Source: an archaeon (GTDB taxonomy: Archaea > Iainarchaeota > Iainarchaeia > Iainarchaeales > CSSED10-239). Taken from it: a DNA stretch of 8,575 nucleotides. Below are positions 1 through 8,575 of this stretch, piece by piece. A model generated the notes under the pieces. The model was not told the DNA's origin. It saw nothing but the letters and a program-made list of their open reading frames with translations, and did not search any database. The DNA lies in contig DAOOON010000026.1 of assembly GCA_035387745.1 (NCBI GenBank), positions 1-8,575 of the forward strand, read 5' to 3'. Position numbers and translations under genes: made by a program. Positions within the stretch are counted from its first letter, which is position 1, and each line of letters starts with the position of its first letter.

Positions 1-32
1 GCATAACCGGTCTGCCATCAAGGCGCTTATTC

Positions 33-102: not shown

Positions 103-1281
103 ATGAGAATTGGTATAATTAGCGATTGGCACCTGGGTGTTGATTTTGATAATGAACTTGGAAAGGACTCTTTTACTAATCTTTTTTTAGCATTTAAGCA
201 GCTTGAAACACAAGATATTGATCTTCTTTTGGTTCCTGGAGACCTCTTTGATGTCTCAAAACCAGAACCAGAGGTGCTTTTTGAAGCTATTAATCTTTTA
301 AATGAAATTAATATTAAAAACAAATATACTGAAATTAAAGCAAAAATACCAATACTTGCAATTATTGGAAATCACGAATATCGCTCAAAGGACTACATTA
401 CAACTGTTGAGCTTTTAGAGTCTCTTGGGTTTTTAAAACTTTTAAAAGCAGACTGCTTGAAATTTGAAAAAGAAAAAATAGCAATCTTTGGAATGACTGC
501 TCTTCCTGAAAAAATGGCTCTTAGCTATCTTAAAGAGAAGTTTAATCCACAGCCTTTGAAAGGATATTACAATATCTTAATGATACATCAATCAATTGTT
601 GAATATCTGCCATTTGAAGACGAGATGGTTGCTACAATTTCTCTTTCTGATCTACCTTCTGGATTTGATGTAATTGTTAATGGCCACCTTCACTGGTCAA
701 GCATTATTGATCTACCACAAGGCCCTAAGTTTCTTTTACCTGGTTCAACTGTTACAACACAGATTAAACAAAAAGAAACAGAAAAGCCAAAAGGCTATTT
801 TATTATTGATACTGACAAAAAAGAAATTGATTTTTGTCAAATAAAAGACATTAGAAAAGTATATTATATTGATTTAAAGTTTTCTAAAAAGACTGTTTCT
901 GATATTATTTCTATGATAAAAGCAGAACTTGAAAAACTTGAGAAAACACCAAACAGGAAAGCAATTGTTAGAATCAGATTAAAGGGAGAACTAGAAGATG
1001 GAGAATCTCTAAAGAACCTTAATATTGAATCTTTAAAAAAAGACTACTCTGAATTCTTTTATATCTCTTTAAAAAACGAAATTTCAGAAAAAAGACTAAA
1101 AGAAAGTATTGAACAACTAAAAAGATTGCAAAGCGAAAACAAGAATGTTTCAGAACTTGCAAAATCCATATTTTCTGAGCAGATTGAGCAAACAAAAATC
1201 TCCAAAGGCTTTGATTATAGAAGAATCTACGAGCTTTTAGAAAATGGCGACGTAGATAAAGCAAAAGGCGCTCTTAACTAG
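103..1281 (+). CDS. mre11: DNA double-strand-break repair nuclease Mre11 (calcineurin-like metallophosphoesterase, archaeal type; SbcD homologue)
   Basis: 392-aa ORF with ATG at 103 and TAG at 1279-1281. The phosphoesterase motifs occur in canonical Mre11 order: D8-x-H10 (ISDWHLG), G46-D47-LFD, G89-N90-H91-E, H162 (LMIHQS) and G194-H195-L-H197. A capping-domain-like block (KGYFIIDTDKKEIDF) and a K/E-rich helical C-terminus (possible Rad50-binding helices) follow. From memory, blocks such as LLESLGF, ILMIHQ, LSDLPSGF..GHLH and LLPGS align with archaeal Mre11 (Pyrococcus type). Motif I lies within the first 10 residues, which supports this start codon. Confidence 0.88.
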   Translation: MRIGIISDWHLGVDFDNELGKDSFTNLFLAFKQLETQDIDLLLVPGDLFDVSKPEPEVLFEAINLLNEINIKNKYTEIKAKIPILAIIGNHEYRSKDYITTVELLESLGFLKLLKADCLKFEKEKIAIFGMTALPEKMALSYLKEKFNPQPLKGYYNILMIHQSIVEYLPFEDEMVATISLSDLPSGFDVIVNGHLHWSSIIDLPQGPKFLLPGSTVTTQIKQKETEKPKGYFIIDTDKKEIDFCQIKDIRKVYYIDLKFSKKTVSDIISMIKAELEKLEKTPNRKAIVRIRLKGELEDGESLKNLNIESLKKDYSEFFYISLKNEISEKRLKESIEQLKRLQSENKNVSELAKSIFSEQIEQTKISKGFDYRRIYELLENGDVDKAKGALN

Positions 1282-1286
1282 TCTTC

Positions 1287-1335
1287 TTTATATTTTATAA
1301 ATATATCTTAGCATATTTCTTTTAACTATATAAAG
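1287..1335 (+). promoter_or_regulatory. AT-rich intergenic region with several TATA-like boxes upstream of the giant ORF (exact promoter not resolvable)
   Basis: The candidate boxes are TTTATATT (1287-1294), TTATAAATAT (1296-1305) and CTATATAAA (1326-1334). There is no GGAGG-like ribosome-binding site before the ATG at 1346. The T-rich run just after the mre11 stop (1283-1297) could also act as an archaeal oligo-T terminator. Confidence 0.25.
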
Positions 1336-1345
1336 AGAAATAATT

Positions 1346-1408
1346 ATGAATTTAAAATATATAACTTTATTCTTATTAATAATATTTATAACACCTTTTG
1401 CTTTTGCG
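1346..1408 (+). other. Signal peptide of the giant protein (aa 1-21, predicted cleavage AFA|EL)
   Basis: MNLKYITLFLLIIFITPFAFA has a basic n-region (K4), an uninterrupted hydrophobic core and a small-x-small A-F-A site, followed by E22. Confidence 0.8.
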
Positions 1409-4400
1409 GAATTACAACCCGCATTCTTAGATCAAAACACGCACTATTTTGGAGAAAAGATTAATTTCGGATTGATTGGAGTTATCCCTGATGATTTCAA
1501 TCACGCAAGAATTATTGTGCAATTGCCAACAGGTCACAGTTATCAAGAAGCAGACATAGATATAGATAATTTAAGTGATTATTATCTTGTTTTTCCATTA
1601 GATTTTATATATAATCAATTACAAATAAAATATATTTTTTATAATTCTAACAATACGGCGCCCCTTAATACAGAATACACTTTACAATTAGAAAGATTGC
1701 CTCTAATTGAAAATATAAACTATTGTATAAACGCAGATTGTAATAAAAATAACTTTGAAGTAATAGATGCAAATGAAATTTATCTTAAGACGCAGACTGA
1801 AATTATTGATGAAAATTTAAATTTTGATATATTAGTGATTTTAGATGGTTATATTATAGAAGATGGGAGAAATATACAATTACCTTATCTTTTAGATACT
1901 ACTCCCGGAGAATATGAAATTAAAGTAACTCCTAATTATAATAATCAAGAATTGGAAACTAAATCTTTATTTTTAAATTTGGCTATCACACAACCAGAAA
2001 CAAATAACTTAGAAGATTATTTAAATGATATTAGAGAGCAAAATGAAGCAGAAGAAAGAGAACAAGAAATAAATACCGCTATAGAAAATATTAACGACTC
2101 TCAAACAACCGAAACTCAAGAAAAAACAGAACCTAAAAATAATCTTTGGTTAATTGGATTGGGGATTTTAGTAGTATTGATAATTTTGATTTCAATTTTA
2201 TTATTTAGTAGACCTAAAGAAAAATTTGTTGAAAAACCAAGCAGAAGAGAAAGCCGAAAAGAAAGAGGGTTTTTATTTTTGATAATCTTTGTGTTGTTAT
2301 TTTCTTCTATTTATGGTCTGTCTTTAGAAGAAAAGATTAAAGAATATCAAAATTTAGAAATTACTTTTGATACTCTGCAAAAATCCTATCCTTATCCTAA
2401 GGACATATCTATACCAATAAGTAATACTCAACCACAAAACGTTTTTTATTACCCTATTTCTGCAACTGGACTTTCAGACGCTGAAAAAATAACGCCGATA
2501 GCCGAAAACAAACTATCAAATCTAATTGTGTCTTTAGAAACAGTTTACTTATCTATAGATTTGTCTGCAGAAATAGAAACTGCAAAAACCACTGGTAAGA
2601 CCTTGGGATTTGAAAGTGGTTGTGAACAAGTATTAGAATGGTTCCAGAAAAATCCAATAACTGCAGAACCAAACACTATAATTGCCAGAACCAAAGAAAA
2701 TTTGCTAAACAACATAACAATAACTGAAAATAAAACAGGATATACCGATAACGACAAAACACAAATTAGAGACAAAATAAAAAAATTAAAGACAGATAAA
2801 AAATATAAAAACTCTAAAAATCCATTTGTCGAGTATTGTATTTCAGACTATTTAGAAAATAAAGAGTCAAACATTGGTGGAAAATACATCACAAAAAAGA
2901 AAATATTATTAAAAATGGAATATACAGAGAAAAACCTTGAGGCCATAAATAATTATGACTTAACTTTTGACAATATAATATTTAACGATTCAAAAGGAAA
3001 AGATGTACTTGAGACGACCTTCCTTGGAAGCGATTTAAATCACATATATGTTTGGGTGGATTATACTGCAGATATTTTGCGTGAACAAAACCTTAGCCTA
3101 AAAGGAATTGCAGCAAATAGAATATTACAAGAAGAAATCGCCGATAATGGCGAAATCATTAAGCACTATATGATAACTAATCTTGATGAAGGAGAATCGG
3201 TAGACGTTACCTATGCTGCTCAATTGATAAATCTGGAAATATTAGATTCGGATTATGGCTCTTATTATCAATTTGAGGGTGTTGGTCAAGATACTTCTGC
3301 AACTCCAGAAAAGAAAGGAAATGTCTTTGCTATTAGAGACAAGGATTTGTTTTCGGTAAAAAACAAAATATTAAGCAATGTTGAAATCTCTGGAAAAATA
3401 TCCTTAGAAAACGGAAATTATAAATTTGAATTAAGTCCCGAATCTATAAAATTACTTGCAGAAGTAAATATAAATCCAACAAAGTATATTGTTTTAGACA
3501 AAAAACAGTTAATTGATGTTGGAACAGATACTCAAAAACTTACTATAGGAATAGACTATAATTATGGAATTATTTGTAGTGACTTCTCCGGAATCACAAT
3601 TTTATTAGAAGAAGATAAAACACTTTATCTGCCAACAAATATTAATAATCCTCATTTAGAGGCACTAACTAAATTATTTATAAAAACCAGTTCTCAAAAA
3701 AATATAGAATTGACAAGATTACAGTTACCTTTGCTTTTTATTTTTGCTTTTAAAAACAATGCAAATACAATCCCTGACGAAGATGTTTTATTTTTAAAAA
3801 CTTATGATGATGTTGCAAACATAATTAACAGAGGTAATTACACCAAGTTGGAAAAGAACATAATATTTAACAATCTTATTTCTTTAACTGAAGATTTCAG
3901 TTTTCAAAAAACCGCAAATTCTAAAGACGGACTATATAGATTTAAATATAAAACCAGGTTTGTTCTTAATTATGGACTTGTAAACTATATCGATCATCCA
4001 GAAAATATAAATAATTTAAATTTAGAAACTGTAGGAATAACTATCCCTCAATTATATGACAATAAATATCTTGAAAGAAAGGGGTTTGTGGATAAATCAT
4101 TAACAACACTCTTGGTGCTTGGCTATCTTGGGGATAATTATAGATCCTTTAGTAAAGTAATTAGATCAAGCTATAATTCTCATGAAGAATACGAAATAGA
4201 TTTAAAAAATCAAATACAAACGGTGTTTAATGAACAAAAAGCAACAACAGATAATTGGGGATATTATAAAGAATTATTGATTTATCCATTTTACAGAACT
4301 GGAATTGAACAAAAAATCTGCTCATATGATAAAGAAAACTTTCCAAAATATTCTGTAAAAAACTACTGTTATCAGGCATATAATTTTAATCCTGAATCTA

Positions 4401-7400
4401 ATACTTGGGGAATAGCATATGACCCGCATAACCTAGATTCTGGATTTTTAATGCAAGACTATTCTTTCCAAAATAATTTTGTTTCATCATATAGAACAAT
4501 ATTGTTGCTTGAAGATATTGAAAACTTTAAAAATAACAAACTTACATTTAATCAAAATCAATTAAAAACATATAATAAATTAAATATTTTCTTAAGTTTA
4601 ATTGAACTTGAAGCTATAAGAAATACTTCAACAACCGAAAATAATAGAAACTTTGGAAATGCTTTAATTTTATCTTATAAACTAAGAGAGTTGTGGGATA
4701 GTAGTAGTAACGAACTTAAAAAATATGATTCGGGCACTATTAGAAACGCAATTATAAATACAAACGAGGCATTAGCATATCAAGCAACCGTTAAGTTAAG
4801 AAATGTAGTTTCTACTGATAAATCTTTAAGATTAGATATATATAAAGGTCTTATCCAAACAGATTTTGAAAGATATGCTGAATCTATAAATCCTTCTGCT
4901 GGGTGGTTTGACTTAAGCGATTCTGCGAGATTTTTAATTACTGGCAGTTGGATTGAAACCTTTATTTTTACTGGTAGCCGAAAAGAAATTGAAAGTTTAG
5001 ATCAAAAAGAAAGAGACAAATATAATAAAATACTACACGGATCCTGTTGTATAGCTCAAAGACTAGGAGAATTAGAAAGTGATTCAAGTTATAAAAATTG
5101 GACAATCAAAGACATAAAAGATAACTTTAGTCCTTATTCTAAAGCTAAAACAAATACAAAAACAGATGTTATTGGGTGGGTAACTGATGGAACAAGTTGT
5201 ACTGGTACTTTAAGAGCAAACCCCGGGGATTGTGCTACTGATATATCTTATTTATATAATTCCAAAGAATTTGGAAATGATATTTCTTTTATATTAAATG
5301 ACAAAAAAGACAAAAAATCTATTACTCAATTTTTAAGTGCTGGATATTATACTAATCACACATTAGATATGGATTCTTCTATTCAAGTTAATTCCACAAA
5401 AAGAGAATTAGAAGAAACAAAAGTTAAATTTAAACCAGATGCAATAACCTCTGCATTAAGATTTATTGATTCCGGGATAAACCCTGCAACAATTATTATT
5501 ACCGTTGCAACTGCTGGAGCAGGTTATGGACTTATGACGGGAACGGGCAGCGTCTTCACAAGAATTGCAAGTGGATTTACAACAAAGCTGACTTTGGGAA
5601 AATTATCTAGTGCTTTAGGGACAAGATTATTGTATGAATTTGGAGAAAATATAGTTTTAGATGCGGCTTATGGTGCAATTGTTATTCCAAGTCCTAAACT
5701 TGCAGGAGAACATCCATTCCTGACATATGTGGTACTTGGAGTAATAGCAGGAAACTTCCAAAAAGCATTTATATCAAACGTAGATAATGCCGCCTCGGCA
5801 ATTACAAAAGATCTTATTGCAACATCTGGTTTAAAACAAGCAGATAACATAAAAATACAAACGGCAATAAAAACTGCGTTAAATACAGATTATTCAGACA
5901 CCACAGAACAATTACTAAAAATAAAAAGAGGAGAAGCAGTAACTGATTCCTTTTTTAGAAGGTTACCAAAAGTTGTAGCAGGCACTGCTGATGACGAGCT
6001 TGTAACTGCTATTAGAAAAAATTTATTATCTCAAAAGATATCGGTTAGTGATGATGTAATTAGAAAAAGTTTAACTCAAAATAATTTATATCTTGGAACA
6101 AGGGCTTCTGCAGTATCTAAATTTATATCTCGCAAAAATCTTATAGAGTTAAATAATATCGCTGCAGCCAATTTAGACAACACAAGTAGTAAATTCATTA
6201 AATTAGCAACAACAAGAACTGTTCCTGAAAGATATGGTGCAAAATTTACAAGTATTGTTGATGAATTTGAAGATTTAAAGAAGTTTAATGAAATCGACCC
6301 GGAACATTTTGCTAAACCTACAAAAATAGTTTATGATGATTTCGGAAACCCTCTTGGCTATGAAATGGAAAAAATATATGGCACAACCCTTGCAGACTAT
6401 ATTGAAGATGGAGGAGTATTAGATGATTCTTTCTATAAAAGAATTGAAGATTCAGTAAGTGAATTACATAAACAAGGCTACGCACACGGAGATATCAATC
6501 CAAACAATATAATACTTAGAGAAACATATGACGGATTAGATTTTACTATTATTGATCCTGTTGGTTTTAGAAAATTAAATCAAATTACAGATATTCCAGG
6601 ATTAACTGAGCAAGCAGCAATTGACTTAGATATAGAACAGTTAAATAAATTAAGAAATTTAACAATTCTAGAAGCAGAAATGATGAGAACAAACAAAATC
6701 TATGTTCCTAATGTTTGGGAATTACAAAGAATACAACAAACCGGAGAATTGGTGCCAATAAGAAGAGAAGGCGGTAACATTGTATTAGGCGAAGTTTTAG
6801 AAATATCTTCAGACAATACAAAAGTGAAAGTTAGATTTTCGGATTATCTAAATAATGTAACTGACGAACGTTTTTATGATATTGATACTGAAACATTTAT
6901 ACCAATAAGACAAAATGACATAGTTTATGTAAATGGTGTGGGCTCAGGAAAAGTAATAACAGTTGAACCAAATAAAACAGTAACATTAAGAAGAACTGAC
7001 GGGTCCATTATCTATACTGATGTTGATGCAATAATTAGTTCTAGGTCTTTAAATCAAGGATTAAAATTAAATGGAGATATATCTCAAATTACTCCACAAA
7101 CAACAGAAGCATTTTCGGCTACAAAAAATAGATTACCAGAAAGATTTATTTCTAGAAATACCGATTCTTGGTCTGGAAGAGAAGTTATTTTAGTTGATAA
7201 AATAAATGACCCCGTGTTAAAAGAATATCTTGCAAATGTAAGAATATTAAGCTCACAAAATCCAGACATTTTAAATAAAATCAAGGAAGCCTATAATTTA
7301 GTAAATAGAACAATGCCAGTTTATAGTTTAGGAAAAACAAATATCTTAGATGATATAATAGATAATGTAGATGTCGGAGGAGACGTAATTCCATTAGGCC

Positions 7401-8356
7401 ATTTTATAAATTCGAAGATTGGGGTTTGTAGACACAAGGCGCTATTATTAAAACTTACCCTTGATGAAATGGGAATAGAATCTTATCTTGTCAGAGGATC
7501 ACAATATACAGATGAGGGTAAAAATTTGGGCAGGCATGTTTGGGTAGAAATGGACCTTAAAACAAACAAAGGAAATAAAATTTATTTAGATCCAACACAA
7601 AATAAATATGAATATTTTTATGATGGTCAGCAAGTTAATGGATTAGTTAGAGATTCAGAATTGACATTATTCAGAATCAGAGATACTGTTCCACAGAATA
7701 ACTTTCGAAATTTAGCCGATGGAGCAGACATATACAAACGAACTGCAAGATTACAAAATTATTTAACTGAAGAATTACACAATTATAACCTAAATCCAAC
7801 AGCAATAAATGATTTTACATTTAAATATAATATAACTCAACAAATTACAAATCCACAATTTTTATCACAAATAGGATCTAATTTAAATGATCTACAAGAT
7901 TTAATGAAATTACAAAATTTAAAAATTAAAGAAATTTATCAAAATGATGGACTTTTACTTACATTAAATCACAAATTATCTTTGTCGTCACTTCCAACAA
8001 ATGTGCGTGAAGAAATAGTTTCTGAATTGGGCAGAAAAAATGTGTCAGTCATAGTTGTTGATGATTGGACGATTCGGAATTTAGATGATCAAGATAATTT
8101 TGCTACACTTAACTTAAATGATCCTAGAAATCCAATTATAAAAATTGAAAGATCAGCATATAATGACCCTAATAAATTTTTAAGAGAAATGAGATACGAA
8201 TATGGTGCATTATTGCTTTCTAAACAATATGGTAGTAAAGGAGACATTCCTTTATTCTTTAAACCATCTGATGCCGGGAAAATCGAACCTGTCTGGGCAA
8301 CACATTATTTAGATCATTATATGGAGAAAGGATATAATAGATTATTTCCAAATTAA
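1346..8356 (+). CDS. Giant (2,336 aa) multi-pass membrane/surface protein with a C-terminal kinase-like plus transglutaminase-like enzymatic module; overall function unknown
   Basis: A 7,011-nt open frame in AT-rich DNA cannot arise by chance, because stop codons are AT-rich. The N-terminus is a classical signal peptide. Recognisable catalytic motifs in the C-terminal third are in frame (see the sub-features). All five antisense ORFs inside it are short and low-complexity. Confidence 0.93.
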   Translation: MNLKYITLFLLIIFITPFAFAELQPAFLDQNTHYFGEKINFGLIGVIPDDFNHARIIVQLPTGHSYQEADIDIDNLSDYYLVFPLDFIYNQLQIKYIFYNSNNTAPLNTEYTLQLERLPLIENINYCINADCNKNNFEVIDANEIYLKTQTEIIDENLNFDILVILDGYIIEDGRNIQLPYLLDTTPGEYEIKVTPNYNNQELETKSLFLNLAITQPETNNLEDYLNDIREQNEAEEREQEINTAIENINDSQTTETQEKTEPKNNLWLIGLGILVVLIILISILLFSRPKEKFVEKPSRRESRKERGFLFLIIFVLLFSSIYGLSLEEKIKEYQNLEITFDTLQKSYPYPKDISIPISNTQPQNVFYYPISATGLSDAEKITPIAENKLSNLIVSLETVYLSIDLSAEIETAKTTGKTLGFESGCEQVLEWFQKNPITAEPNTIIARTKENLLNNITITENKTGYTDNDKTQIRDKIKKLKTDKKYKNSKNPFVEYCISDYLENKESNIGGKYITKKKILLKMEYTEKNLEAINNYDLTFDNIIFNDSKGKDVLETTFLGSDLNHIYVWVDYTADILREQNLSLKGIAANRILQEEIADNGEIIKHYMITNLDEGESVDVTYAAQLINLEILDSDYGSYYQFEGVGQDTSATPEKKGNVFAIRDKDLFSVKNKILSNVEISGKISLENGNYKFELSPESIKLLAEVNINPTKYIVLDKKQLIDVGTDTQKLTIGIDYNYGIICSDFSGITILLEEDKTLYLPTNINNPHLEALTKLFIKTSSQKNIELTRLQLPLLFIFAFKNNANTIPDEDVLFLKTYDDVANIINRGNYTKLEKNIIFNNLISLTEDFSFQKTANSKDGLYRFKYKTRFVLNYGLVNYIDHPENINNLNLETVGITIPQLYDNKYLERKGFVDKSLTTLLVLGYLGDNYRSFSKVIRSSYNSHEEYEIDLKNQIQTVFNEQKATTDNWGYYKELLIYPFYRTGIEQKICSYDKENFPKYSVKNYCYQAYNFNPESNTWGIAYDPHNLDSGFLMQDYSFQNNFVSSYRTILLLEDIENFKNNKLTFNQNQLKTYNKLNIFLSLIELEAIRNTSTTENNRNFGNALILSYKLRELWDSSSNELKKYDSGTIRNAIINTNEALAYQATVKLRNVVSTDKSLRLDIYKGLIQTDFERYAESINPSAGWFDLSDSARFLITGSWIETFIFTGSRKEIESLDQKERDKYNKILHGSCCIAQRLGELESDSSYKNWTIKDIKDNFSPYSKAKTNTKTDVIGWVTDGTSCTGTLRANPGDCATDISYLYNSKEFGNDISFILNDKKDKKSITQFLSAGYYTNHTLDMDSSIQVNSTKRELEETKVKFKPDAITSALRFIDSGINPATIIITVATAGAGYGLMTGTGSVFTRIASGFTTKLTLGKLSSALGTRLLYEFGENIVLDAAYGAIVIPSPKLAGEHPFLTYVVLGVIAGNFQKAFISNVDNAASAITKDLIATSGLKQADNIKIQTAIKTALNTDYSDTTEQLLKIKRGEAVTDSFFRRLPKVVAGTADDELVTAIRKNLLSQKISVSDDVIRKSLTQNNLYLGTRASAVSKFISRKNLIELNNIAAANLDNTSSKFIKLATTRTVPERYGAKFTSIVDEFEDLKKFNEIDPEHFAKPTKIVYDDFGNPLGYEMEKIYGTTLADYIEDGGVLDDSFYKRIEDSVSELHKQGYAHGDINPNNIILRETYDGLDFTIIDPVGFRKLNQITDIPGLTEQAAIDLDIEQLNKLRNLTILEAEMMRTNKIYVPNVWELQRIQQTGELVPIRREGGNIVLGEVLEISSDNTKVKVRFSDYLNNVTDERFYDIDTETFIPIRQNDIVYVNGVGSGKVITVEPNKTVTLRRTDGSIIYTDVDAIISSRSLNQGLKLNGDISQITPQTTEAFSATKNRLPERFISRNTDSWSGREVILVDKINDPVLKEYLANVRILSSQNPDILNKIKEAYNLVNRTMPVYSLGKTNILDDIIDNVDVGGDVIPLGHFINSKIGVCRHKALLLKLTLDEMGIESYLVRGSQYTDEGKNLGRHVWVEMDLKTNKGNKIYLDPTQNKYEYFYDGQQVNGLVRDSELTLFRIRDTVPQNNFRNLADGADIYKRTARLQNYLTEELHNYNLNPTAINDFTFKYNITQQITNPQFLSQIGSNLNDLQDLMKLQNLKIKEIYQNDGLLLTLNHKLSLSSLPTNVREEIVSELGRKNVSVIVVDDWTIRNLDDQDNFATLNLNDPRNPIIKIERSAYNDPNKFLREMRYEYGALLLSKQYGSKGDIPLFFKPSDAGKIEPVWATHYLDHYMEKGYNRLFPN
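1409..1990 (+). other. N-terminal ectodomain, probably one or two beta-sandwich (Ig/CARDB/PEGA-like) modules (aa 22-215)
   Basis: Alternating hydrophobic/polar beta-strand patterns are present (ARIIVQLPTG, YYLVFPL, IKYIFYN, EYTLQLE, FDILVILDG). There is also a TPGEYEIKVTP strand-turn motif typical of adhesin-type beta-sandwiches. No profile search was possible. Confidence 0.45.
1991..2143 (+). other. Acidic, E/Q/T/N-rich low-complexity stalk (aa 216-266)
   Basis: QPETNNLEDYLNDIREQNEAEEREQEINTAIENINDSQTTETQEKTEPKNN is strongly acidic and has no hydrophobic core. It lies immediately before a membrane helix, like the stalk of an anchored surface protein. Confidence 0.6.
2144..2326 (+). other. 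Transmembrane helical hairpin: TM1 (aa 267-287), basic loop (aa 288-308), TM2 (aa 309-327)
   Basis: The sequence is LWLIGLGILVVLIILISILLF, then SRPKEKFVEKPSRRESRKERG (9 K/R in 21 aa, consistent with the positive-inside rule), then FLFLIIFVLLFSSIYGLSL. The expected topology is out-in-out after signal-peptide cleavage. Confidence 0.75.
2327..5482 (+). other. Large orphan region (aa 328-1379), predicted extracytoplasmic; no family recognised
   Basis: It lies between TM2 and the next hydrophobic cluster. It is N/K/I/T-rich with mixed beta-like and helical stretches, and it holds 9 of the protein's 12 cysteines, several close together (HGSCCIAQ; SCTGTLRANPGDC; KICSYD...NYCYQ). I recognise no catalytic or repeat motif. 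Confidence 0.5.
5483..5758 (+). other. Second hydrophobic cluster: one clear TM helix (aa 1380-1399), a weak hydrophobic segment (aa 1436-1450) and a short TM-like helix (aa 1457-1471)
   Basis: The three segments are PATIIITVATAGAGYGLMTG, IVLDAAYGAIVIPSP (contains Asp, marginal) and PFLTYVVLGVIAGNF (15 aa). Because the number of true membrane spans is ambiguous, the side on which the C-terminal tail sits is also ambiguous. Confidence 0.6.
6215..6625 (+). other. Minimal protein-kinase-like (Bud32/RIO/Kdo-APH-like) domain (aa ~1624-1760)
   Basis: A hinge-like YEMEKIYGTTLADYI is followed by LHKQGYA-H1714-G-D1716-INPN-N1721-IIL, which is the kinase catalytic loop HxDxxxxN. The metal-binding-loop equivalent FTII-D1737-PVGF lies 21 residues after the catalytic Asp. 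I see no GxGxxG loop and no clear VAIK-type lysine; only RYGAKF (K1633) is a candidate. Confidence 0.65.
6749..7039 (+). other. Two tandem small beta-barrel (KOW/SH3/Tudor-like) repeats (aa ~1802-1833 and ~1851-1898)
   Basis: There is an internal protein-level repeat. LVPIRREGGNIVLGEVLEISSDNTKVKVRF parallels FIPIRQNDIVYVNGVGSGKVITVEPNKTVTLRR. Both units start with PIR and continue with the pattern [GD]xIVxxxxxGxVxx[IV]...K[VT]x[VL]R. Confidence 0.45.
7313..7615 (+). other. Transglutaminase-like / papain-fold cysteine protease core (aa ~1990-2090)
   Basis: The Cys-His-Asp triad sits in canonical contexts and spacing: IGV-C2028-RHKALLLKLTLDEMGIESYLVRG (nt 7427-7429), GR-H2064-VWVEM (nt 7535-7537) and IYL-D2082-PT (nt 7589-7591). 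The Cys-to-His distance is 36 aa and the His-to-Asp distance is 18 aa. This matches the transglutaminase-like superfamily signature G-x-C-x-x-[FH]-A...H-x-W-x-E...D-[PA]-T. Confidence 0.75.
7616..8353 (+). other. C-terminal orphan region (aa ~2091-2336), no recognisable domain
   Basis: The region has soluble-looking mixed alpha/beta composition and contains no cysteine and no hydrophobic span. I can name no motif with confidence. Confidence 0.4.
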
Positions 8357-8400: not shown

Positions 8401-8575
8401 ATGAAATGCTTATCATATAACTTCTTTTCGGTTATTGGAAATGAACTTCGGTGGAAGATTATTAAAAAACTTTATAAGTCAGAATTGACTGTTTCTGAAT
8501 TGTGTGTTGCTCTTGAAGAGGAACAGTCTAAAGTTAGCCATGCTTTAAAGATACTACTTGATTGTAATATTGTTT
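8401..8575 (+). CDS. ArsR/SmtB-family winged helix-turn-helix transcriptional regulator (5' fragment, continues beyond the window)
   Basis: Translating frame 1 from the ATG at 8401 gives MKCLSYNFFSVIGNELRWKIIKKLYKSELTVSELCVALEEEQSKVSHALKILLDCNIV with no stop. This matches the ArsR pattern (F..L.n..R..Il..L...eltV.EL...L..sQs.vShHLk.L...g.V). The ORF track omits it, presumably because it is truncated. Confidence 0.72.
   Translation, partial: MKCLSYNFFSVIGNELRWKIIKKLYKSELTVSELCVALEEEQSKVSHALKILLDCNIV

Follow-up and report, generated by a model that had tools for sequence, protein, structure and literature searches.

The window analysed here is a stretch of 8,575 nucleotides with a single long open reading frame, which encodes a giant protein (Table). 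The host is a DPANN archaeon of Iainarchaeota-like affiliation. The identical protein is called on 4 independent metagenome contigs, the genes beside it have housekeeping functions, and a tRNA scan found no tRNA. The composition is biased, with N, I, K and L making up 36% of the residues. Together with three co-linear relatives, the giant protein forms an archaeal family; whole-protein identity is 43% for P0002, 36% for P0003, and 55.5% for the protein of an Iainarchaeum MAG (L005), the closest named relative. A genome scan with the whole protein as query returned no relatives, and a three-protein alignment was needed to detect L005, in which one contig matched. Queried with the 777-aa tail, a word-indexed protein search gave no matches, not even the giant protein itself. 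The word-indexed search with profiles returned short proteins only, and the giant relatives were reached solely by exhaustive search of representatives.

Judged by hydropathy, the N-terminal hydrophobic segment is probably a signal peptide or an anchor, and the two strongly hydrophobic segments, which are also present in P0002 and P0003, are read as a transmembrane hairpin. The large region that follows is presumed to face outward. The weakly hydrophobic segments behind it are kept in P0002, P0003, and the 746-aa protein P0008, and are possibly further membrane spans joining the outer part to the tail. Their hydropathy lies under the usual transmembrane threshold, and thus the tail could lie outside the cell. 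The tail consists, in this order, of a minimal Bud32/NleH-like kinase, two small putative β-barrels, an EDR1-like domain, and a C-terminal region. The last is shared only by the giant protein, P0002, and the L005 protein; its sole profile match in the PDB, a complex I subunit (E = 0.003), is weak and is regarded as chance. A tail model built from 5 sequences is poor (mean pLDDT 55, pTM 0.31), and the packing of the domains is not readable from it.

Table. Features of the giant-protein gene (nucleotide positions are those of the window)
Feature	Nucleotides	Strand	Residues	Basis or remarks
Giant-protein gene, carrier of the EDR1-like domain	1346..8356	+	2,336 aa	Sole long ORF
N-terminal hydrophobic segment	1346..1414	+	5-23	Kyte-Doolittle peak 2.12
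Two strongly hydrophobic segments with basic loop	2150..2326	+	269-287 / 309-327	Kyte-Doolittle peaks 3.33 and 2.51
Large region, presumably outer	2327..5485	+	328-1380	9 of the 12 cysteines; no Pfam match
Weakly hydrophobic Gly/Ala/Thr-rich segments	5486..5773	+	1381-1476	Kyte-Doolittle 1.2-1.45
Minimal protein-kinase-like domain	6191..6595	+	~1616-1750	Motifs, profiles, Foldseek
Two putative tandem small β-barrels, SH3/Tudor/KOW-like	6749..7021	+	~1802-1892	AF2 strands, model residues 203-293, pLDDT 55-75
EDR1/CTR1/ARMC3-type transglutaminase-fold domain	7166..7630	+	1941-2095	PF14381 match, homologues, AF2, Foldseek
N-terminal family motif R-E-V-I-L-V-D-K-I-N-D-P	7178..7213	+	1945-1956	Alignments A1 and A2
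Codon of predicted nucleophile, motif G-V-C-R-H (SKIGVCRHKAL)	7427..7429	+	C2028	Cys in 148/151 homologous segments
Codon of predicted general base, motif H-x-W (KNLGRHVWVEM)	7535..7537	+	H2064	His in 147/147 non-gap segments
Codon of predicted third triad residue (NKIYLDPTQNK)	7589..7591	+	D2082	Asp in 97/101 non-gap segments
C-terminal region	7631..8353	+	2096-2336	AF2 pLDDT <55; no Pfam match

The EDR1-like domain contains the segment flagged by the first-pass annotation (7313-7615, aa 1990-2090) as a transglutaminase-like Cys-His-Asp core resembling the EDR1/CTR1 branch of this fold. The translation confirms the three residues in GVCRH, RHVWVE, and LDPT, with spacings of 36 and 18 residues. 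The proposed EDR1/CTR1 resemblance is borne out by Pfam: aa 1930-2110 match PF14381 (EDR1_CTR1_ARMC3_pept) with 48.3 bits and E = 1.4e-12 (cut-off 27), and the whole protein scores 43.1 bits, also over the gathering cut-off (27 bits). The second family named at that stage, Transglut_core (PF01841), falls just short, with 21.5 bits and E = 3e-4 against a gathering cut-off of 23. The PF14381 alignment is partial: of the 203 profile positions it covers 55-179, or 59-179 when the domain alone is scanned, and it ends at aa 2061, three residues short of H2064; other prokaryotic homologues extend to profile positions 194-198. The PF14381 label is already precomputed on the giant protein in public annotation.

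A search of 1.84 billion representatives finds 216 homologues at E ≤ 1e-3. PF14381 is present in 92 of the 119 homologues that were scanned, and Transglut_core passes in 78 of them. Residues were counted over 150 homologues with 151 matched segments, and the predicted Cys, His, and Asp are conserved there as the first-pass annotation had anticipated (counts in the Table). W2066 is kept in 146 segments, the His of the same H-x-W motif having 147 non-gap segments. In alignment A1, which holds 31 sequences, the residues C, R, H, H, W, and D are invariant, as is D1955. The eukaryotic members P0097 and P0164 have the identical triad. Within the archaeal family the EDR1-like domain is 83% identical to that of P0002, while the outer part is ~30% identical. 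P0003 keeps the triad despite its decayed kinase motifs. Ahead of the triad, our own alignments suggest a helical N-terminal extension with R-E-[VI]-[IV]-x-V-D...D-P-x-L as a trait of the family. The stretch REVILVDKINDPVL at aa 1945-1958 fits this consensus of A1 and A2, and the motif is also found in P0097, a eukaryotic protein with EDR1 and kinase domains.

The AlphaFold (AF2) model of the EDR1-like domain has a core with pLDDT of about 90 or above. C2028 (model residue 149) is the first residue of helix 149-162, H2064 (model residue 185) lies inside strand 181-192, and D2082 (model residue 203) is the last residue of strand 198-203. In terms of secondary structure, papain and transglutaminases are arranged in this way, with Cys opening a helix and His and Asp on the two strands that follow, and to that extent the model favours the first-pass reading. 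The top 50 Foldseek matches are almost all of the transglutaminase fold and include TglA, TGases, Rad4, NATs, vasohibins, PeiP/PeiW, and CPR-C4. Their scores are weak (best E 4.2e-3, query-normalised TM-score ≤0.36, probability up to 1.0), to which the disorder in 40% of the modelled segment contributes. A PDB search with the single domain sequence yields only noise (affibodies, sortase), and a family profile is needed; with it, 9crn (Streptococcus pyogenes TglA) is matched at E = 2e-8 and 6g49 (Pseudomonas aeruginosa TgpA) at E = 0.017. In TgpA, the C, H, and D columns fall on C(+44)H(+16)D within chain residues 235-307; our own offset converts these to protein residues 396-468. TgpA aa 396-467 hold the catalytic triad of a domain with transglutaminase activity (PMC3507681).

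The cysteines of the giant protein are unevenly distributed. There are 12 in total, at positions 127, 132, 426, 498, 744, 992, 1008, 1234, 1235, 1285, 1296, and 2028, and C2028 is indeed the only one after C1296, alone in the C-terminal 1,040 residues. Given the Cys frequency of aa 1-1,296 (0.85%), a Poisson model predicts 8.8 cysteines for the final 1,041 residues, and the probability of one or fewer is ~0.0014. The first-pass annotation had taken this pattern as a sign of a retained active-site thiol. The depletion is real, but it is not specific evidence for catalysis, because eight other cysteines are invariant across three giant relatives (including C426, C498, C992, C1008, C1235, and C1296), the tails of the relatives are Cys-poor as well, and the nucleophile is the lone Cys in 85 of 151 homologous domain segments. 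Close pairs of cysteines (127/132, 992/1008, 1234/1235, and 1285/1296) occur in the predicted outer part.

The neighbour of the EDR1-like domain is a minimal Bud32/RIO/NleH-like kinase and not a Raf-like TKL kinase. It contains the catalytic loop H1714-G-D1716-x-N-P-x-N1721 (nt 6485-6508) and I-I-D1737-P-V-G as the equivalent of the DFG motif. K1619 is the candidate β3 Lys, and it and E1640/E1642 are picked out as candidates by their co-variation with the catalytic Asp across relatives; no Gly-rich loop or N-lobe is recognisable in the sequence. The motifs YAHGDINPNNI and IIDPVGF are kept in P0002, P0008, and L005 and are degenerate in P0003. Every Pfam and NCBIfam score of the domain lies under its cut-off: arch_bud32 (NCBIfam) matches partially with E = 5e-8 (28-33 bits vs 125), NleH (NCBIfam) with E = 0.004, Kdo (Pfam) with 20.6 bits (cut-off 21.3), and Pkinase with 15.2 bits (cut-off 31.7). 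PF07714 (PK_Tyr_Ser-Thr) has no match in the giant protein. A profile of four family members matches 590 kinase sequences of the PDB, with a best E of 3.9e-6. Moreover, Foldseek on the model finds ULK2, Bud32, and NleH1/2 with E of 1e-4 to 1e-3 (4e-4 to 1e-3 for Bud32 and NleH1/2), and the target-normalised TM-score for NleH is 0.58-0.61. Membership in a defence system was considered and set aside; the PADLOC matches (PD-T4-6, MkoA, Stk2) reflect generic kinase similarity only.

A pairing of kinase and EDR1-like domain in the order opposite to that of plants had also been suggested. The kinase-like domain does precede the EDR1-like domain, but it is not Raf-like, and the protein is not a permuted CTR1/EDR1. 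Since the kinase is minimal and Bud32/NleH-like, the arrangement is most simply explained as a separate fusion. Between the two domains, the predicted strands may form tandem SH3/Tudor/KOW-like barrels, an assignment of low confidence; Foldseek matches them to Spt5 and the tandem Tudor of SGF29, and they have no Pfam match.

Residues ~1941-2095 are an EDR1/CTR1/ARMC3 domain of the transglutaminase fold (papain-like clan) with an intact triad, and we consider it likely that this domain works as a thiol enzyme within a kinase-bearing tail module. A working enzyme is the most likely role of the domain. The favoured chemistry is that of a hydrolase (peptidase, isopeptidase, or deamidase) over that of a cross-linking transglutaminase, because the hydrolase families C71 (PeiW/PeiP) and C93 are those most similar to PF14381 (PMC10318531). 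In the majority of homologues the N-terminus carries neither a signal nor a membrane segment, in keeping with an enzyme inside the cell.

Alternatively, the domain could serve for docking or regulation without being catalytic, the usual assumption for plant CTR1, EDR1, and B3-Raf, and its triad would be a structural relic. Its task would then be to recruit a partner, in plants a sensor histidine kinase or a receptor, and to place or control the neighbouring kinase. For plants and mosses, the region with the EDR1 domain is treated solely as one of interaction or regulation (PMC9370073), and the function of the domain is described as little known (PMC5874906). Loss of enzymatic function has occurred repeatedly in the transglutaminase fold, as in Rad4/XPC, one of the Foldseek matches, and the L005 protein has Leu in the aligned Asp column, with an Asp two residues further on. 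However, C, H, D, and the flanking R, H, and W are near-invariant across 150 diverse homologues, as expected of an enzyme. The domain is also not conserved merely as a kinase accessory, since P0003 retains the triad after losing the kinase catalytic residues; moreover, the majority of homologues have no kinase at all. A docking module without catalysis is therefore unlikely.

Less probable still is a tail that is exported or delivered. In that case an episymbiotic DPANN cell would use the two domains against or on its host, either as effector or toxin modules (an NleH-like kinase together with a thiol peptidase) or as an enzyme that cleaves walls or adhesins (PeiW/LapG-like). The Gly-rich hydrophobic segments would then have a role in translocation, and self-cleavage by the peptidase might set the tail free. 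The kinase model is nearest to the secreted effector kinases NleH1/2 (target-normalised TM-score ~0.6), in line with the NCBIfam NleH match. The outer part and the tail are conserved module by module, in a mosaic resembling polymorphic surface or toxin proteins, the segments at aa 1381-1476 are not convincingly transmembrane, and some relatives carry domains typical of host-associated bacteria, DUF4116 and SAP/ARMET_C. On the other hand, no toxin-trafficking, immunity, or processing domains are detected, the genes alongside are housekeeping genes, and the PADLOC matches are generic. Membership in MEROPS C71 (PeiW/PeiP) or C93 (LapG-type) was rejected, with no Pfam match to Peptidase_C71 or LapG-type families at E ≤ 1. 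The need of a kinase for ATP also speaks against a simply extracellular location. A chance Cys...His...Asp pattern in an AT-rich, low-complexity protein, for which the biased composition and the empty single-sequence PDB search might speak, has practically no likelihood in view of the PF14381 match over its cut-off, the 216 homologues with the same invariant columns, and the confident model core.

Taking the domain as a thiol enzyme, the tail would lie on the ATP-containing side of the membrane, where the kinase and the enzyme may act on a common partner or on each other. Possible routes are phosphorylation-gated cleavage or modification, or self-processing of the tail, and events at the outer part could in this way be coupled to an intracellular output. 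A more speculative and rather doubtful extension is that kinase and EDR1 domain together make up a functional unit with a separate origin, or separate retention, in DPANN archaea (minimal kinase, then EDR1) and eukaryotes (EDR1, then Raf-like kinase). Bacterial FHA-plus-EDR1 proteins would be a third variant, and EDR1 would be active as a peptidase, isopeptidase, or deamidase coupled to phosphorylation. If so, the archaeal proteins, whose triad is intact, would be a simple system for finding the long-unknown activity of the CTR1/EDR1/ARMC3 domain, and in the giant protein the kinase might prompt the domain to cleave the tail or a bound partner.

The EDR1 domain is carried by CTR1 (ethylene), EDR1 (disease resistance), B3-Rafs (ABA and osmostress), Toxoplasma TgTKL1, and animal ARMC3, and its biochemical role is described as little known (PMC5874906, PMC9370073). 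Here, a giant archaeal membrane protein has a domain of this type with a conserved Cys-His-Asp triad adjoining an unrelated minimal kinase, and bacterial relatives join the EDR1 domain with phosphopeptide-binding FHA domains. Together, these settings support the views that the EDR1 domain is ancestrally an enzyme and that its link to phospho-signalling recurs, rather than being peculiar to plants. The published claim that kinases with an EDR1 domain are restricted to plants and protozoans is now qualified, and the giant proteins of DPANN archaea, otherwise without annotation, gain a concrete domain. The advance is incremental, since the family has been catalogued before and the giant protein carries its label from automated annotation; what is new is the architecture around a known domain family and its unusual setting.

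Among known systems, Bud32 (KEOPS) and the T3SS effectors NleH1/2 share with the kinase-like domain the compact size, the HGD-x-N-P-x-N loop, and the I-D metal-binding motif. In contrast to Bud32, the domain occurs here without Kae1 or a KEOPS context.

TglA (9crn) and TgpA (6g49) are the best profile and fold matches in the PDB, TglA being Foldseek rank 1, and their triad columns align with those of the giant protein. Their identity to the domain is 12-16%, however, both lack the EDR1-type N-terminal motif, and the TgpA domain is periplasmic. Neither the TglA nor the TgpA domain is known to adjoin a kinase. Literature searches on S. pyogenes TglA and on DPANN giant proteins with transglutaminase domains found nothing relevant. 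Regarding C71 and C93, PeiP/PeiW are found among the Foldseek matches at ranks 16, 19, and 30, and the similarity is only a distant one of fold. PeiW/PeiP, which lyse cell walls, and the periplasmic LapG of P. aeruginosa act outside the cytoplasm, whereas the domain described here adjoins a kinase.

With the PF14381 family, the domain has in common the R-E-V-I-x-V-D...D-P-x-L motif, the G-x-C-R-H-[RK]-A-L-L-x-K helix, the H-x-W strand, and the D strand. It differs in that the first ~54 and last ~24 profile positions are unmatched and in being borne by a membrane protein of 2,336 aa from an archaeon. Land-plant CTR1 may lack the triad His, a point that is not used as evidence here. Among the scanned homologues, FHA-plus-EDR1 proteins are represented by P0010 and P0013 and EDR1-plus-Pkinase proteins by P0022 and P0097, and only the latter two have the plant-like order of EDR1 followed by kinase. 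Arabidopsis EDR1/CTR1, moss ARK and other B3-Rafs, and Toxoplasma TgTKL1 likewise combine an EDR1-type domain and a kinase fold in one polypeptide (PMC5874906, PMC9370073). In contrast to these proteins, the order is reversed in the giant protein, with the kinase first and the EDR1 domain ~200 residues on. Moreover, the kinase is a ~135-aa Bud32/RIO/NleH-like domain and not TKL/Raf, putative tandem β-barrels lie between the two domains, and the tail is attached to a predicted membrane anchor and a presumed outer part of >1,000 aa.

The single very long ORF of the window (1346..8356, + strand; window G+C 29%) encodes a 2,336-aa protein with an EDR1-type transglutaminase-fold domain that has a conserved Cys-His-Asp triad, and, neighbouring it, a kinase-fold domain whose catalytic motifs are intact. 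Positions 7313-7615 correspond to residues 1990-2090, and the translation confirms the motif first read there: C2028 in GVCRH, H2064 in RHVWVE, and D2082 in LDPT, separated by 36 and 18 residues. The EDR1 branch proposed in the first-pass annotation is borne out by profile search. Residues 1930-2110 score 48.3 bits (E=1.4e-12) with PF14381 (EDR1/CTR1/ARMC3, peptidase-like), whose curated cut-off is 27, and align to profile positions 55-179 only. In the same stretch, Transglut_core scores 21.5, below its cut-off of 23, and CEP76 peptidase-like and Transglut_core3 also match under their own cut-offs. By curated threshold and motif, the domain is assigned to PF14381, and its triad, secondary-structure layout, and fold neighbours place it in the transglutaminase-like superfamily. 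PF14381 is already catalogued and public annotation already gives this protein that label; the new element is the architecture.

When 1.84 billion representative proteins were searched exhaustively with HMMER, 216 relatives came out at E<=1e-3. Short homologues with named sources are from a chytrid fungus, a Pacearchaeota archaeon, and Patescibacteria. In the matched segments from the best 150 of the 216, a sample biased toward motif-keeping sequences by recruitment through similarity to the query, the triad is conserved as anticipated: Cys in 148 of 151, His in all 147 non-gap positions, and Asp in 97 of 101. The columns of R2029, H2030, and W2066 are nearly as constant in this set. D1955, C2028, R2029, H2030, H2064, W2066, and D2082 are invariant in a 31-sequence alignment, and the conservation picture is repeated in another, independent set of 71 short homologues. 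Among 119 relatives scanned, PF14381 is matched in 92 and Transglut_core in 78.

The family profile matches Streptococcus pyogenes TglA (9crn, E=2e-8) and Pseudomonas aeruginosa TgpA (6g49, E=0.017) in the PDB. C2028, H2064, and D2082 align on the TgpA Cys, on His 44 residues further, and on Asp 16 further (chain residues 235-307, equal to protein residues 396-468 by an offset worked out here). Residues 396-467 of TgpA hold its conserved catalytic triad, and the purified domain shows transglutaminase activity (PMC3507681). An AlphaFold2 model of residues 1880-2130, built from a 72-sequence alignment, has a confident core of 91 residues with pLDDT of at least 90, roughly at 1946-2094. In the model C2028 opens a helix, H2064 is on the second strand downstream of that helix, and D2082 ends the following strand; the predicted layout is that of papain and transglutaminases at the secondary-structure level. 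The top 50 PDB matches by Foldseek consist almost entirely of transglutaminase-fold proteins, including TglA, a Cytophaga putative cysteine protease, transglutaminases (TG2/TG3 among them), Rad4/XPC, arylamine N-acetyltransferases, vasohibins, PeiP/PeiW, and CPR-C4. Their statistics are modest (best E=4e-3, query-normalised TM-score <=0.36), partly owing to disorder in 40% of the modelled stretch.

The full list of Cys positions (127, 132, 426, 498, 744, 992, 1008, 1234, 1235, 1285, 1296, and 2028) agrees with the earlier observation that C2028 is the sole Cys of the last 1,040 residues. This depletion is statistically real, with ~8.8 expected from the front-part frequency and P(<=1) ~0.0014. 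The further reading of this scarcity as a sign of a retained active-site thiol is compatible with the data but gains little from it, since most of the other Cys are invariant, and several clustered, up front and the nucleophile is often the lone Cys in homologues (85 of 151 domain segments). The motif itself is more than chance, but it is chiefly evidence other than the number of Cys that shows this. In the front part, 8 of 11 Cys (window 1724-5233, residues 127-1296) are invariant among three giant relatives, and close pairs occur in the presumed outer part at 127/132, 992/1008, 1234/1235, and 1285/1296. This conservation and closeness suggest that an exported region without known domains contains disulfides or metal sites.

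Features of the giant protein and of the genes flanking it in the window
Feature	Residues	Window positions	Remarks
Archaeal Mre11-like phosphoesterase gene		103..1281	Upstream of giant gene; 392 aa; NCBIfam Mre11_Sulfo E=1e-32, below cut-off
N-terminal signal or anchor	5-23		Suggested by hydropathy
Transmembrane hairpin	269-287 and 309-327		Basic loop; suggested by hydropathy
Region without known domain	about 1,050 residues		After the hairpin
Weakly hydrophobic Gly/Ala/Thr-rich segments, e.g. ATIIITVATAGAGYGLMTGTGSVF	1381-1476	5486-5773	Between front part and kinase tail
Kinase-like domain	~1616-1750		Catalytic loop YAHGDINPNNI; DFG equivalent IIDPVGF
Two tandem small beta-barrels	~1802-1892	6749-7021	Between kinase and EDR1-like domain
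C-terminal region	2096-2336	7631-8353	Last ~240 residues; invariant patches include IERSAYND and YGSK..IP.F
ArsR/HTH_5-type regulator gene (start only)		8403-8575	Same strand as giant gene, directly 3'; 102 aa on a second contig (L001)

The kinase-like domain matches NCBIfam arch_bud32 (E=5e-8) and, more weakly, Kdo, PrkT, and NleH, all below cut-offs, and a four-sequence kinase profile matches 590 different kinase sequences in the PDB, with a best E of 3.9e-6. In a low-confidence model of the tail, this region matches ULK2, Bud32, and the minimal effector kinases NleH1/2 (Foldseek E 1e-4 to 1e-3; target-normalised TM-score vs NleH ~0.6), and the beta-barrels match Spt5 and the tandem Tudor of SGF29. 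For the C-terminal region, neither relatives outside the closest orthologues nor a family or structure match was detected. The hydropathy of the Gly/Ala/Thr-rich segments is under the normal transmembrane level; they are also kept in P0008, a 746-aa homologue consisting solely of the hydrophobic segment, kinase, two barrels, and EDR1-like domain. At its barrel position P0008 shows two clearer sequence repeats.

Co-linear giant relatives are P0002 (2,233 aa), P0003 (2,339 aa), and a 2,325-aa ORF on JAQVTI010000021.1 (L005) of a probable Iainarchaeum (Iainarchaeota, DPANN), which is 55.5% identical overall. Identity to P0002 is 26-33% in the outer part and 78-85% in the barrels and EDR1 domain, whereas against the L005 protein (212-7189) the pattern is reversed, with 55-63% in the outer part, 79% in the kinase, 13% in the barrels, and 45% in the EDR1 domain. 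Such mosaic conservation suggests module exchange between lineages. In the L005 protein, 18 residues are also inserted in the hairpin that joins the His strand to the Asp strand, and Leu occupies the Asp column (YLLPDE), an Asp following two residues on; this is a variant triad or else a shift in the alignment. In other family members, the EDR1-like domain occurs alone or with the phosphopeptide-binding domain FHA (P0010, P0013), SAP/ARMET_C, DUF4116, or PRTase-CE, the last also in P0013, and twice it is N-terminal to a canonical kinase in the plant-like order (P0022, P0097). The sequences of P0010 and P0013 point to a recurrent link of the domain to phospho-signalling outside eukaryotes.

The identical giant protein is found on four independent metagenome contigs, and on the longest of them (19 kb) its gene is surrounded by housekeeping genes: PPDK-like, Mre11, ArsR, cysteine desulfurase, intein-containing NifU, ADP-forming acyl-CoA synthetase, and POR. 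The Mre11-like nuclease gene has no adjacent Rad50 gene, the giant gene being next downstream; on L001, a metagenome contig with the identical protein, a PPDK-like gene and a 135-aa ORF lie upstream of the Mre11-like gene. The NifU_N (iron-sulfur scaffold) gene of L001 (12495-14099) is apparently intein-split with a LAGLIDADG endonuclease domain inside, and the cysteine desulfurase gene adjoins it.

The EDR1-like domain is probably an active thiol enzyme, a hydrolase rather than a cross-linker, in a tail that would lie on the ATP side of the membrane and act with the kinase in one pathway. Least secure in this reading are its chemistry, topology, and coupling. A hydrolase is preferred because PF14381 has been placed closest to the hydrolases C71 (PeiW/PeiP) and C93 (PMC10318531). 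The coupling is suggested by the recurrence of EDR1 domains with kinases and FHA domains; that the pairing is a recurrent functional unit, through which the archaeal proteins could reveal an EDR1-domain activity so far hidden, is a tentative idea. It is unlikely that the domain is instead a non-catalytic docking module, the role assumed in plant CTR1/EDR1. In P0003 the kinase (aligned to residues 1618-1745) has lost the catalytic Asp (HGN) and the DFG-equivalent Asp (IGSPAG), is also without the candidate beta3 Lys and alphaC Glu, and is likely a pseudokinase by these substitutions, while the EDR1-like domain keeps Cys-His-Asp despite this decay, which argues that the thiol domain is under its own constraint. 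Still less probable is an effector or lytic module that is delivered or extracellular, recalling the NleH and PeiW/PeiP matches. An N-terminal signal or membrane segment occurs in few homologues, and the presence of a kinase, together with the apparently intracellular nature of most homologues, favours the ATP-side placement. A chance arrangement has a negligible probability. The module order is conserved in the DPANN family.

The giant protein itself falls outside the plant/protist EDR1-CTR1 kinase family. The first-pass annotation had supposed a kinase and an EDR1-like domain in the opposite order to plants; this is a correct description, with the kinase first, but the kinase is of a different class and not Raf-like. 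Moreover, the domain is set here in a giant archaeal membrane protein. EDR1-domain kinases have been described as unique to plants and protozoans (PMC5874906), a statement that the archaeal proteins now qualify.
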